Origin: Escherichia coli
GTDB lineage: Bacteria > Pseudomonadota > Gammaproteobacteria > Enterobacterales > Enterobacteriaceae
Reading direction: 5' to 3' (one strand)
NCBI RefSeq assembly: GCF_003991155.1
Contig: NZ_CP031293.1
DNA length: 64,000 nt
In this document: positions 18,401 through 21,400 of the stretch, piece after piece
Layout: each line of letters starts with the position of its first letter
How positions within the stretch are numbered: position 1 is the first letter of the stretch
Position numbers: made by a program

Positions 18401-21400
18401 GCTGGAAGGGCAATTGTTGTTGAGCGGCAAACCACCGCTGAACATCGCACGTTATATCAAAGAGTTAAAAGCGTATCCGTACGGCTGTCTTGAGCAAACC
18501 GCCAGCGGCCTGTTCCCGTCACTTTATACCAACGCAGCCCAACTGCAGGCGTTGGGCATCAAAGGCGACAGTGATGAGAAACGCCGTGCATCGGTCGATA
18601 TCGGCATTTCCCGTTTGCTGCAAATGCAACGTGATAACGGCGGCTTTGCGCTGTGGGATAAAAACGGTGATGAAGAGTACTGGCTGACGGCTTACGTGAT
18701 GGATTTCCTGGTCCGCGCAGGTGAGCAGGGTTACAGCGTGCCGACAGACGCCATTAACCGGGGGAATGAGCGTCTACTGCGCTATTTACAAGATCCGGGC
18801 ATGATGTCGATTCCGTATGCGGATAATCTCAAAGCCAGTAAATTCGCCGTACAGTCTTACGCTGCGCTGGTGCTGGCCCGTCAGCAAAAAGCTCCACTGG
18901 GTGCGCTGCGTGAAATCTGGGAGCATCGTGCAGATGCCGCTTCTGGTTTACCGCTGCTGCAACTTGGCGTTGCGCAGAAAACCATGGGTGATGCGACGCG
19001 TGGTGAAGAAGCAATTGCGCTGGCGCTGAAAACGCCGCGTAATGATGAGCGGAAATGGCTGGGTGATTACGGTAGCCCACTGCGCGACAACGCGTTAATG
19101 CTCTCCTTGCTGGAAGAAAATAAACTGCTACCCGATGAGCAGAACACTTTGCTGAATACGCTTTCGCAGCAGGCGTTTGGTGAACGCTGGCTATCGACGC
19201 AGGAAAGTAACGCGTTGTTCCTGGCTGCCCGTACGGTTCAGGATTTACCGGGTAAATGGCAGGCGCAAACCTCTTTCTCAGCTGAGCCGCTGACAGGCGA
19301 GAAAACGCTAAACAGCAATCTGAATAGTGATCAACTTGCCACCTTGCAGGTGACCAACAGTGGCGATCAGCCGTTATGGCTGCGTGTGGATGCCAGCGGT
19401 TATCCGCAATCCGCACCTTTACCGGCGAACAATGTGCTGCAAATCGAGCGTCATATTCTTGGTACTGATGGTAAGAGCAAATCGCTGGACTCGTTACGTA
19501 GCGGCGATCTGGTGCTGGTCTGGTTGCAGGTAAAAGCCAGTAACAGCGTGCCGGATGCGTTAGTCGTGGATCTGCTGCCTGCGGGTCTGGAACTGGAAAA
19601 CCAGAATCTGGCGAACGGTAGCGCCAGCCTGGAGCAAAGTGGTGGCGAAGTGCAAAACTTACTGAACCAGATGCAGCAGGCGAGCATTAAGCACATTGAG
19701 TTCCGTGACGATCGCTTTGTGGCGGCGGTTGCCGTTGATGAATACCAACCGGTAACGCTGGTGTATCTGGCGCGGGCGGTGACGCCGGGAACGTATCAGG
19801 TACCGCAACCGATGGTGGAATCAATGTATGTTCCCCAATGGCGGGCGACCGGCGCGGCTGAAGATTTGCTGATTGTCAGACCGTAAATGCCTCGCTTGTT
19901 AACCAAACGCGGCTGCTGGATAACGCTGGCAGCTGCGCCATTTCTCCTTTTTCTTGCAGCGTGGGGAGCAGATAAACTCTGGCCTCTACCGCTGCATGAA
20001 GTCAATCCCGCACGAGTGGTTGTGGCGCAGGATGGGACGCCGCTCTGGCGCTTTGCCGATGCGGAAGGCATCTGGCGTTATCCGGTAACAATCGAAGATG
20101 TTTCTCCACGTTACCTTGAAGCGCTGATCAATTATGAAGATCGCTGGTTCTGGAAGCATCCGGGGGTGAATCCATTCTCGGTGGCGCGCGCAGCATGGCA
20201 AGATCTCACTTCGGGAAGGGTTATTTCCGGTGGCAGCACGCTCACTATGCAGGTTGCTCGTCTGCTTGATCCTCACCCCAAAACATTTGGCGGCAAAATT
20301 CGCCAGCTCTGGCGCGCGTTGCAACTGGAGTGGCATCTGTCTAAGCGTGAAATTCTGACCTTGTATCTTAACCGCGCTCCATTTGGCGGTACGTTGCAGG
20401 GGATCGGTGCGGCAAGTTGGGCTTATCTCGGAAAATCGCCTGCGAATTTAAGCTATTCCGAGGCGGCAATGCTGGCGGTGTTGCCGCAAGCGCCCAGCCG
20501 ACTGCGCCCGGATCGCTGGCCGGAACGTGCCGAAGCCGCGCGTAATAAAGTGCTCGAACGGATGGCTGCGCAAGGTGTGTGGTCCCGTGAGCAGGTAAAA
20601 GAATCAAGGGAAGAACCCATCTGGCTGGCACCCCGACAAATGCCGCAACTGGCACCGCTGTTTTCGCGCATGATGCTCGGTAAAAGCAAAAGCGACAAAA
20701 TCGTTACTACGCTGGATGCCGGTCTTCAACGACGTCTGGAAGAACTGGCGCAAAACTGGAAAGGACGATTACCACCGCGCAGCTCACTGGCGATGATCGT
20801 GGTTGATCATACCGATATGCGTGTTCGCGGCTGGGTGGGTTCGGTTGATCTCAACGATGATTCACGCTTTGGTCATGTTGATATGGTCAATGCGATCCGA
20901 TCGCCAGGATCGGTGCTCAAACCGTTTGTTTACGGTCTGGCGCTGGATGAAGGATTGATCCACCCGGCATCACTGCTGCAAGACGTCCCCCGGCGTACCG
21001 GTGACTACCGACCTGGCAACTTTGACAGCGGTTTTCATGGCCCGATCAGCATGAGTGAGGCGCTGGTGCGATCGCTGAACTTACCTGCTGTGCAGGTGCT
21101 GGAAGCCTATGGACCGAAACGGTTTGCGGCAAAGTTACGCAATGTTGGATTGCCGTTATATTTGCCCAACGGTGCTGCACCGAATCTTTCGCTCATTCTC
21201 GGCGGCGCTGGCGCAAAACTGGAAGATATGGTGGCAGCGTATACCGCGTTTGCTCGCCACGGCAAGGCAGGCAAATTGCGCTTACAGCCTGACGATCCGC
21301 TGCTTGAACGGCCTTTAATGTCGTCGGGGGCTGCGTGGATCATTCGCCGGATTATGGCTGATGAAGCGCAACCCTTGCCGGATGGTGCCTTGCCGCGCGT

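Follow-up and report, generated by a model that had tools for sequence, protein, structure and literature searches.

The yfhM and pbpC genes of Escherichia coli are direct neighbours which code for a periplasmic protease trap and for penicillin-binding protein 1C (PBP1C), and the question raised by this locus is whether both proteins are made from one coupled transcript and what would then set their relative amounts. We analysed a window of 64,000 nucleotides from contig NZ_CP031293.1 (assembly GCF_003991155.1), a term which denotes the whole stretch of DNA studied. The original prediction had claimed an intact thioester motif in yfhM, a pbpC start codon placed directly behind the yfhM stop codon, which was taken to suggest translational coupling, and a fit with the proposed pairing of the two proteins. 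The coordinates given with it (18470–19890) run from the CLEQ motif to the yfhM/pbpC junction.

State of the two genes and their products

Both genes are located on the plus strand, as are all features described below, and follow the divergent sseA-yfhM intergenic region (14722–14927). Re-translation yielded a single uninterrupted ORF of 1652 codons plus the TAA stop for yfhM (14928–19886) and an uninterrupted ORF of 770 codons for pbpC (19887–22199), starting from the ATG at 19887–19889. The locus belongs to the core chromosome of E. coli, with 100% DNA identity to several RefSeq strains, and 5425 of 5426 complete genomes contain it. Because both ORFs are uninterrupted and their boundaries equal those of the two CDS annotated by RefSeq on 100% identical DNA, we rejected the presence of a pseudogene or frameshift; yfhM showed neither a frameshift nor a loss of its CLEQ motif.

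The identification of yfhM as the gene for the alpha2-macroglobulin (A2M) known as ECAM was confirmed by its domains, PDB matches and RefSeq product name. A Pfam search returned bMG1, A2M_bMG2, bMG3, MG2, bMG5 and bMG6 together with A2M_BRD, A2M, TED_complement, CUB_A2MG and bMG10, all eleven above their cut-offs and in the expected order, and thereby recovered the A2M and thioester domains (A2M, TED_complement) expected of such a protein. PDB entries 4RTD, 4ZIQ and 5A42 matched YfhM at E=0, with full-length matches to 4RTD, 4ZIQ and 4U48. The predicted thioester motif was indeed found intact on re-translation: GCLEQ occupies residues 1186–1190 within the TED_complement match, and CLEQ (Cys1187-Leu-Glu-Gln1190, nt 18486–18497, in the context KAYPYGCLEQ) is the sole CxEQ of the ORF and lies at the same position as the published ECAM thioester Cys1187-Gln1190 (PMC4498604). 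It is not a chance match: Tyr1183, Pro1184, Tyr1185, Cys1187, Glu1189 and Gln1190 are invariant in an alignment with 32 homologues with 30–56% identity, and CxEQ occurs at the thioester position in all 111 full-length representatives. The complete segment Y-P-Y-G-C-L-E-Q (18474–18497) includes the two tyrosines, Tyr1183 and Tyr1185, which shield the thioester in ECAM (PMC4498604). Further towards the C-terminus, the MG domain carries the motifs RDDR (19704–19715) and E-S-M-Y (19818–19829), of which Asp1594, Asp1595, Arg1596, Glu1631, Met1633 and Tyr1634 are invariant or nearly so in the same 32-homologue alignment; RDDR and ExMY lock and protect the thioester in ECAM (PMC4498604).

At the N-terminus, the signal peptide ends in the lipobox MKKLRVAACMLMLALAG-C18 (L-A-G-C, 14970–14981), followed by Asp19. 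An Asp residue at position +2 of a lipoprotein is the classical signal for retention in the inner membrane. By these established rules, YfhM should be lipidated and retained in the inner membrane, and ECAM is reported to be anchored there (PMC4498604). The boundaries of the bait region (residues ~923–963, 17694–17816) were taken from ECAM's structure in its elastase-cleaved state, in which Arg923-Leu942 is disordered and Phe947-Asn963 is ordered after cleavage (PMC4498604); this region contains no substitutions compared to K-12. Thioester formation and covalent trapping have been demonstrated by biochemistry and structure for the A2Ms of K-12, BL21 and Salmonella (PMC4498604, PMC3328433, PMC5764988). 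With 98.4% identity to the K-12 protein and every key motif conserved, we infer that YfhM of the window would act by the same mechanism: a protease would cut the exposed bait region of this membrane-anchored periplasmic member of the alpha-2-macroglobulin/C3 superfamily, upon which the C-terminal MG domain would come away from the thioester domain, leaving the Cys1187-Gln1190 thioester exposed, and the latter would then link covalently to the protease and trap it.

The assignment of pbpC proved equally sound. Its product scored 1568 bits against the NCBIfam equivalog NF008414 (cut-off 1121) and 914.6 against TIGR02073 (cut-off 494.2), contains the Pfam domains Transgly, Transpeptidase and BiPBP_C, and retains the motifs EDxxFxxHxG, SxxK, SxN and KTG intact, represented by EDRWFWKHPG (residue 84), SVLK (342), SLN (396) and KTG (511). 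By these profile and motif matches, it is PBP1C, a class A PBP comprising a GT51 glycosyltransferase domain, a transpeptidase-like domain and a C-terminal domain. The genes for YfhM/ECAM and PBP1C are the ordinary, previously described pair of E. coli, and both are intact.

The yfhM/pbpC junction

The TAA of yfhM (19884–19886) is directly followed by the ATG of pbpC (19887–19889), which bears out the predicted TAAATG junction (19884–19889) with a gap of 0 nt. Adjacent stop and start codons are common in operons and by themselves unremarkable. The pbpC start additionally has no Shine-Dalgarno sequence, as indicated by an anti-SD duplex energy of +0.4 kcal/mol vs. −6.0 for yfhM and −7.1 for ndk. 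Its start region has a predicted pairing probability of 0.73, a higher value than for any of the 30 other starts that were scored (window median 0.49), and the local fold at the start reaches a predicted z-score of −3.3. A long helix burying the pbpC AUG was predicted in E. coli, but we regard it as weak evidence only because RNAalifold gave no support for it as a conserved consensus structure of the family.

We compared this arrangement with Enterobacteriaceae loci from 10 genera. The gap amounts to 0–11 nt in all 20 loci and to 0–3 nt in 19 of them, a single one having 11 nt; E. albertii and three Citrobacter have the identical 0-nt junction, and most other Enterobacteriaceae show a gap of 1 nt. 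None of the 20 loci has a Shine-Dalgarno sequence at pbpC (anti-SD energies no stronger than −2.8 kcal/mol), and the 0–3 nt junction is retained over the 10 genera though the identity of the PbpC proteins falls to 73–86%. Outside of this family, Yersinia and Serratia possess spacers of 51–61 nt together with a strong Shine-Dalgarno sequence (anti-SD −7.6 to −7.8), and the spacers extend over 51–124 nt in Yersiniaceae, Morganellaceae and Budviciaceae and over several hundred nt in most Pseudomonas, many with 300–900 nt, the gap lengths of four loci (L076, L078, L079, L081) being unreliable due to heuristically chosen start codons. The tight junction is not shared by all lineages, so that the pairing of A2M and pbpC does not require coupling. 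For E. coli and its close relatives, the missing Shine-Dalgarno sequence, the structured start and the junction conserved among Enterobacteriaceae all favour the suggested translational coupling of yfhM and pbpC, which we infer from this comparison. Ribosomes terminating at the yfhM UAA would re-initiate at the adjacent AUG, and this would most likely be the main route of pbpC translation because the start lacks a Shine-Dalgarno sequence and lies in a predicted structure.

A promoter in the sseA-yfhM spacer most likely gives rise to a common transcript of both genes. A sigma-70-like site is present in this spacer at 14855–14883, 45 nt upstream of the yfhM ATG, with a score of 9/12; it constitutes weak evidence because shuffled sequences contain at least as many such sites as the region itself. 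The window, K-12 and N44 share an intergenic region of 100% identity, and the coding regions are mosaic. Close to the junction, a consensus scan of the plus strand detected no promoter-like or terminator-like site.

A predicted hairpin within pbpC

By folding and covariation, we identified a predicted conserved mRNA hairpin inside the pbpC coding region at 19908–19937, corresponding to nucleotides 22–51 and codons 8–17 of the gene. The GC-rich structure (CGCGGCUGCUGG-AUAACG-CUGGCAGCUGCG) comprises 12 bp and a loop of 6 nt, reaches about −21 kcal/mol and is followed by the U-rich run CCAUUUCUCCUUUUUCUU. In 21 Enterobacteriaceae sequences, 92.8% of cells were paired, compared to 32–62% with the partners slid, and 42 double-change cells were observed vs. 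3–11 in the slid arrangement, a value that was reached by none of 500 shuffles. Compensatory changes affected 6 of the 12 pairs in this set. The stem begins at +20 to +25 from the AUG in 22 of 23 Enterobacteriaceae sequences.

We considered whether the hairpin may be a by-product of the encoded peptide and rejected this, since the native sequence is more stable than its synonymous recodings in all 23 sequences and the peptide varies between genera while the pairing is kept. A repeated element of the REP/BIME type was likewise rejected because the hairpin matches only once in the window, the 200-nt junction occurs once per genome, and the covariance model of the hairpin produced no match below E=0.09 outside the training set in 945 kb. 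A feature of the DNA or of an antisense RNA is unlikely because the opposite strand would turn two invariant and a number of variable G-U pairs into mismatches. The hairpin matched no Rfam family even at E≤10. The hairpin is the only new detail of this locus and may control the amount of PBP1C. Its conservation suggests that yfhM and pbpC are not simply expressed one-to-one, and, lying 22–51 nt into pbpC, it probably limits pbpC expression relative to that of yfhM.

Further clues to its potential function come from more distant relatives. In lineages whose A2M gene and pbpC are separated by a spacer, a hairpin lies in this spacer, upstream of the pbpC start; that of Budvicia and of the MAG of locus L045 has the appearance of a canonical terminator, and those of Photorhabdus and Serratia are terminator-like. 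When the strongest hairpin in the 120 nt following the A2M stop codon was taken from each of 80 loci, it ranked in the top 1% of windows from A2M-coding sequence in 55 of them. Because the spacer lineages carry a hairpin at this place, with a terminator-like appearance in several of them, the operon may be attenuated between yfhM and pbpC. The hairpin at 19908–19937 would then either terminate transcription intrinsically, though incompletely, or form a barrier against 3'-exonucleases, so that most transcripts would stop shortly behind yfhM and pbpC would be present on a minority of them. The junction would thereby yield much trap and little synthase, and would not serve to express the two in a fixed proportion. 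Read-through into pbpC would in turn depend on coupling, because re-initiating ribosomes entering the 5' arm could suppress the hairpin. We consider such an attenuated operon possible, but short of probable. It agrees with the compensatory changes, the superior stability over synonymous recodings and the G-U pairs that function on the sense strand only, and also with the U-rich run in E. coli and tracts of the UUUUCGUUU or UUUCUUUU type in Enterobacter, Superficieibacter and strain BIGb0383. However, the U-tract is not conserved: 6–7 of the 10 nucleotides after the hairpin are U in Enterobacter and some other genera, but only 2–3 in Pseudocitrobacter and Citrobacter FP75. The E. coli tract (CCAUUUCUCC) has 4 U in 10 and begins 3 nt past the stem, the terminator scan of the window did not flag the hairpin, and the U-richness may merely reflect the codons of a downstream transmembrane helix. 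Moreover, the supplements of two 3'-end mapping studies contain no entry for 3' ends of yfhM or pbpC (PMC7815308, PMC12207403), although their expression may be below detection.

The nearly constant distance of +20 to +25 between AUG and stem allows a different interpretation, by which the hairpin would lie just past the leading edge of a ribosome at the start codon, stop the sliding of post-termination ribosomes and raise re-initiation in spite of the missing Shine-Dalgarno sequence. Unrelated hairpins at about +28 in Marinobacterium and Thalassolituus, whose junctions measure 1–6 nt, conform to this, and no hairpin was found at the in-gene position in Yersinia and Serratia, where pbpC has its own Shine-Dalgarno sequence. 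We nevertheless regard a roadblock of this kind as rather unlikely: the constant distance may only mirror a conserved N-terminal length within one clade, no strong hairpin was found in Desulfobacteraceae, Thiothrix and Thalassocella with tight junctions, and the position upstream of the pbpC start in spacer lineages better suits a function where the A2M transcript ends.

Taking up the attenuated operon again, we tentatively propose that the junction forms a regulatory module of Enterobacteriaceae in three parts, consisting of abutting stop and start codons, a start without Shine-Dalgarno sequence and the covarying 12-bp hairpin in pbpC codons 8–17. The hairpin would be the counterpart of the terminator-like spacer hairpins of the relatives and, as a translation-sensitive attenuator or 3'-end stabiliser, would keep PBP1C far below the trap; this can be entertained, with the odds somewhat against it. 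If true, the hairpin would represent an undescribed cis-regulatory RNA structure that was selected within a coding sequence at the cost of the encoded amino acids. It also provides a concrete handle for mutations, which could show how the levels of the two proteins are set and whether the coupling is real.

Proposed pairing of trap and synthase and comparison with known systems

The pairing of bacterial A2Ms with PBP1C, which the original prediction had called known biology, is indeed published (PMC4498604, PMC3735191, PMC5764988), and the finding of the yfhM-pbpC pair is therefore already known. Two of these papers cite it as a hypothesis of Budd 2004 (PMC4498604, PMC5764988). The defence-and-repair rationale, by which an invading protease is trapped and the wall repaired, still has the status of a published hypothesis, though an interesting one of a periplasmic unit for "innate immunity plus repair". 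Our comparison adds firmer conservation numbers, with CxEQ in 111 of 111 representatives and, among the 78 evaluable homologous loci, 75 in which pbpC is the next gene downstream in the same orientation. This adjacency spans several proteobacterial classes, from Enterobacterales to Pseudomonas, Burkholderiales and Desulfobacteraceae, and because it persists at protein identities of 35–95%, it is far more persistent than expected for neutral synteny. It therefore appears quite unlikely that the genes lie side by side with no functional connection and that defence and repair is a just-so story, despite three thioester A2M loci without pbpC within 3.5 kb downstream (L044, L068, L069) and the published phenotype of PBP1C, a weak one and its first, which consists in supporting LdtD-dependent labelling on overproduction and does not involve ECAM (PMC6131605). 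Finally, we regard it as very unlikely that pbpC is expressed independently, with SD-free initiation and a promoter located inside yfhM in its 3' part, and that the abutting codons merely reflect genome compaction. An RpoE holoenzyme binding peak inside yfhM in genomic SELEX (PMC5493296) makes internal transcription starts possible, and the gaps of many Pseudomonas indicate that the pair can work without coupling. On the other hand, the scan detected no plus-strand promoter-like site over the 2 kb upstream of pbpC, the gene's start has no Shine-Dalgarno sequence and a predicted structure, and the tight junction has been kept in 10 genera with diverged PbpC proteins.

The best overall explanation, which we consider very probable, is an intact and conserved yfhM-pbpC pair coding for the ECAM trap and PBP1C, in which the genes are most likely co-transcribed and pbpC most likely translated mainly by re-initiation, the hairpin probably limiting pbpC expression. 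As originally described, the finding is of small importance: it confirms, for this strain, the intactness of a locus that is well studied and almost universal in E. coli.

The closest known system is the pair of K-12. Its ECAM (4RTD, 4ZIQ, 5A42) is the product of the same gene, with 1626 of 1653 aligned positions identical (98.4%), and shares the domain order, lipobox, bait region, CLEQ at 1187–1190, Tyr1183/Tyr1185, RDDR and ExMY. YfhM of the window differs by 26 substitutions and lacks one residue, Ser1373 of K-12, in a thioester-domain loop (1652 vs. 1653 aa), and none of these 27 differences falls into a described functional motif. PbpC is identical to PBP1C of K-12 at 758 of 770 positions, with 12 substitutions as the only differences and all motifs of the glycosyltransferase and transpeptidase folds as well as BiPBP_C in common. 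Sa-A2M of Salmonella enterica (4U48, 4U4J), likewise of Type I, aligns over YfhM residues 18–1652 at E=0 and has the same entrenched CxEQ locked by a C-terminal MG domain; it is an orthologue from another genus with an offset in numbering (Tyr1175/Tyr1177, Met1625/Tyr1626) and is reported to be 82% identical to ECAM (PMC4498604). The Type II A2Ms, represented by MagD of P. aeruginosa and the YfaS class of E. coli, share the superfamily fold and likewise possess a bait region (PMC3735191, PMC5764988), but lack the lipobox Cys and CxEQ, and are found in a six-gene mag operon and not beside pbpC. Because both cysteines and the pbpC neighbour are present, YfhM of the window belongs to Type I, and its lipobox Cys and CLEQ led us to reject a MagD-like Type II protein without thioester. 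Human alpha-2-macroglobulin and complement C3 share the architecture of MG-ring, CUB and thioester domain and the covalent thioester trap triggered via the bait. In contrast to the monomeric and lipid-anchored ECAM, human alpha-2-macroglobulin is tetrameric, glycosylated and soluble, and it has ~12% identity to ECAM (PMC4498604).

As to expression, the arrangement at the junction can be compared with two groups of operons, which are considered here by analogy. Abutting or overlapping stop and start codons with a weak or absent Shine-Dalgarno sequence are known from the coupled pairs trpE-trpD and trpB-trpA. Attenuators or stabilisers within operons are represented by the rplL-rpoB attenuator and the REP hairpin of malE-malF. 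As in these cases, a stable hairpin after a highly expressed upstream gene could set an unequal expression of yfhM and pbpC; unlike in rplL-rpoB and malE-malF, the candidate hairpin is located not in a spacer, but within the downstream coding sequence, in codons 8–17 of pbpC.

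Products of the yfhM–pbpC locus

According to the annotation transferred from NZ_AP021933.1, the window represents the E. coli chromosome from hcaT to yfgO. It contains yfhM (14928–19886, +), annotated in RefSeq as "alpha2-macroglobulin", and pbpC (19887–22199, +), annotated as "peptidoglycan glycosyltransferase PbpC", and the boundaries of both coding sequences equal those in the six-frame ORF list. The stretch at 14700–22300 is 100% identical to that of at least 10 RefSeq strains; of 5426 complete E. coli genomes, 5425 carry it, in every case chromosomally. The yfhM–pbpC finding concerns biology that was already known, at a core-genome locus that is intact.

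Re-translation of yfhM yielded 1652 codons and a single stop, which is terminal. The only CxEQ motif of the protein is the CLEQ at residues 1187–1190 (nt 18486–18497, context KAYPYGCLEQ), a position equal to the published thioester of ECAM, Cys1187–Gln1190 (PMC4498604). With neither a frameshift nor a loss of CLEQ present, the original prediction of an intact thioester-type alpha-2-macroglobulin (A2M) was confirmed, and the Pfam search retrieved the full bacterial A2M architecture: bMG1, bMG2, bMG3, MG2, bMG5, bMG6, the bait-region domain, A2M, TED, CUB and bMG10. Apart from Cys1187, the only cysteine in the mature protein is Cys18, which belongs to the lipobox (LAGC). The protein retains an intact bait region, Tyr1183/Tyr1185, RDDR and ExMY; when it is aligned with 32 homologues of 30–56% identity, Y1183, P1184, Y1185, C1187, E1189, Q1190 and M1633 do not vary. 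Of the best 150 representatives, 111 are full-length, and every one of these has CxEQ at the thioester position, in 83 of them as GCLEQ. An RpoE (sigma-E) holoenzyme binding peak of intragenic type D was reported inside yfhM by genomic SELEX (PMC5493296), which could reflect an internal or antisense promoter tied to envelope stress.

PbpC showed the Pfam domains Transgly, Transpeptidase and BiPBP_C, scored 1568 bits against the NCBIfam PbpC equivalog (cut-off 1121), and retains the catalytic motifs EDxxFxxHxG, SxxK, SxN and KTG.

Both genes have a mosaic structure and vary more than is usual for core genes of E. coli, as seen by comparing 14990–22300 with K-12 and N44: patches of 200 nt show 87–95% identity, whereas the sseA–yfhM spacer is 100% identical in all three. 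About 1017 genomes show only 80–90% identity across 200 nt spanning the junction. From these sequence comparisons, the mosaicism suggests a history of recombination or diversification. In the complete genome of strain NCTC9100 (locus L085), a deletion equivalent to window positions ~19906–22750 takes out ndk and all of pbpC beyond its first 19 nt, leaving a K-12-identical yfhM followed by rlmN.

Elsewhere in the window, the pepB–sseB spacer (~12444–12600) is 18 nt shorter than in NZ_AP021933.1, and all upstream coordinates are therefore offset from that genome. Rfam matches above the gathering score were the ryfA sRNA (13378–13682, −), which overlaps the annotated small toxin gene timP, the iscRS stability element (5995–6104, +) and sroE (26523–26614, +). 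The region between der and xseA (31828–43235, +) contains sinH, coding for an intimin-like inverse autotransporter, a SinI-family gene and an 8-kb adhesion-domain gene; it is presumably a strain-variable island that K-12 does not have. Part of rodZ (24787–25080, +) is locally very divergent, with 78–93% identity between strains and in-frame indels of 3–6 nt.

Junction and putative translational coupling

The TAA of yfhM (19884–19886) directly abuts the ATG of pbpC at 19887, so the proposed TAAATG junction proved correct, and we infer from the sequence that translation of the two genes may be coupled. The 20 nt 5′ of the pbpC ATG show no anti-Shine-Dalgarno complementarity (+0.4 kcal/mol, compared to −6.0 for yfhM and −7.1 for ndk). 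The initiation region is also predicted to be unusually structured: its mean pairing probability from −12 to +13 is 0.73, higher than at all 30 other window starts scored (median 0.49), and the 120-nt junction fold has a z-score of −3.3. A consensus-site scan of the plus strand near the junction found neither sigma-70-like nor terminator-like sites.

The most informative of the four coupling results is the comparison of gaps and Shine-Dalgarno sequences across species. It covered 20 Enterobacteriaceae loci from Escherichia, Citrobacter, Kluyvera, Enterobacter, Pseudocitrobacter, Pseudescherichia, Pluralibacter, Phytobacter, Superficieibacter and Mangrovibacter. The gap from the A2M stop to the pbpC start is 0–11 nt in all of them (0, 1 or 3 nt in 19), with anti-Shine-Dalgarno energies of +0.6 to −2.8 kcal/mol, while Yersinia and Serratia have spacers of 51–61 nt and strong Shine-Dalgarno sequences (−7.6 to −7.8 kcal/mol). 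Tight junction and spacer with Shine-Dalgarno are complementary solutions, as expected if the junction replaces a ribosome-binding site. Coupling is dispensable for the A2M–pbpC pair as such, because the genes mostly lie several hundred nt apart in Pseudomonas (300–940 nt from stop to start in most of the loci L022–L060). Shortly after the A2M stop, these Pseudomonas spacers often contain a strong hairpin.

A hairpin within the pbpC coding sequence

The sole element for which we found no description is a hairpin in the pbpC coding sequence. Folding of the junction mRNA placed it at 19908–19937 (+) as CGCGGCUGCUGG-AUAACG-CUGGCAGCUGCG, with 12 bp and about −21 kcal/mol. It extends from +22 to +51 relative to the ATG (codons 8–17), is separate from the structure of the start region, and is followed in E. 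coli by the U-rich run CCAUUUCUCCUUUUUCUU. The element is single-copy and had no match in Rfam. A second stable hairpin is predicted at 19955–19996 (+; −22.4 kcal/mol, top of the background distribution), 69–110 nt past the yfhM stop, and was also seen in a divergent E. coli locus (L009).

TAAATG and the first hairpin are kept in the divergent strain N44, and a hairpin occupies the equivalent place in nearly all Enterobacteriaceae loci with other stem sequences, such as CGCUCCCGCUGGC/GCUGGCGGGAGCG in E. cloacae, AAAUCCCGCUGGC/GCCGGCGGGAUUU in Pluralibacter and CGCCGCGGCUGGC/GCUGGCCGUGGCG in Kluyvera. It is displaced to about +38 in Mangrovibacter, and longer and of different sequence in Enterobacter sp. 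Ag1. The encoded peptides vary as well (RGCWITLAAA, RSRWLWLAGA, KSRWRWPAGF). Pairing is maintained in 92.8% of the cells of a 21-sequence alignment, compared to 32–62% with partners slid by 1–3 columns. Cells changed on both sides number 42, versus 3–11 after sliding and 17 ± 3 after shuffling, and none of 500 shuffles reached 42. Compensatory changes affect 6 of the 12 pairs, one of which occurs as six pair types. In 23 of 23 sequences, the native segment exceeds random synonymous recodings of its peptide in stability (z −1.9 to −6.1), and in most of these Enterobacteriaceae genomes few 44-nt windows anywhere in pbpC are more stable than the hairpin. G–U pairs in the stem, two of them invariant, assign the structure to the sense RNA.

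In relatives with an A2M–pbpC spacer, a strong hairpin sits in the spacer instead of inside pbpC; it resembles a canonical intrinsic terminator in Budvicia and one Enterobacterales MAG, is terminator-like in Photorhabdus and Serratia, and has a 12-bp stem in Yersinia. For 55 of the 80 loci, the strongest hairpin in the 120 nt that follow the A2M stop ranks in the top 1% of windows from the A2M coding region, against a chance expectation of roughly 5–10%, allowing for the minimum over the region. On the simplest reading, what is conserved is a hairpin after the A2M gene, and Enterobacteriaceae have incorporated it into the opening 50 nt of pbpC. This hairpin could act as a partial terminator or 3′-end stabiliser holding pbpC expression below that of yfhM. 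Termination is not established, because the U-tract after the stem varies among genera, being better than in E. coli in several and absent in some. Alternatively, the hairpin may be a roadblock keeping post-termination ribosomes at the AUG. All but one of the 23 sequences have a stem that begins between +20 and +25, and in Marinobacterium and Thalassolituus, whose hairpins are unrelated, the stem begins near +28.

Comparison with known A2M–PBP1C systems

YfhM matched the solved ECAM entries 4RTD, 4ZIQ and 5A42 and Salmonella Sa-A2M (4U48) with E = 0. Relative to K-12, 1626 of 1653 aligned YfhM positions and 758 of 770 PbpC positions are the same, and the changes hit no described motif in either protein. 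One codon fewer than in K-12 and N44 (at ~19042, corresponding to K-12 Ser1373 in a thioester-domain loop) gives a protein of 1652 instead of 1653 aa, an allele common to several RefSeq strains.

ECAM is not involved in the first reported PBP1C phenotype (PMC6131605). The idea of trapping the protease and repairing the wall is credited to Budd et al. 2004 in the literature (PMC4498604, PMC3735191, PMC5764988) and still has the status of a hypothesis. The interpretation in the original prediction is supported and was suitably hedged, including its view of the pairing as known biology. The alignment scan for A2M, with one genome per species, returned 80 loci, 78 of which were evaluable for the downstream gene, and 75 of these had a PbpC homologue directly downstream on the same strand. 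The pair occurs in Enterobacterales, Pseudomonas, Oceanospirillales, Xanthomonadales-like MAGs, Burkholderiales and one Desulfobacteraceae MAG. This adjacency agrees with the published linkage of Type I thioester-bearing A2Ms, whose genes adjoin pbpC or share an operon with it (PMC4498604, PMC3735191, PMC5764988).
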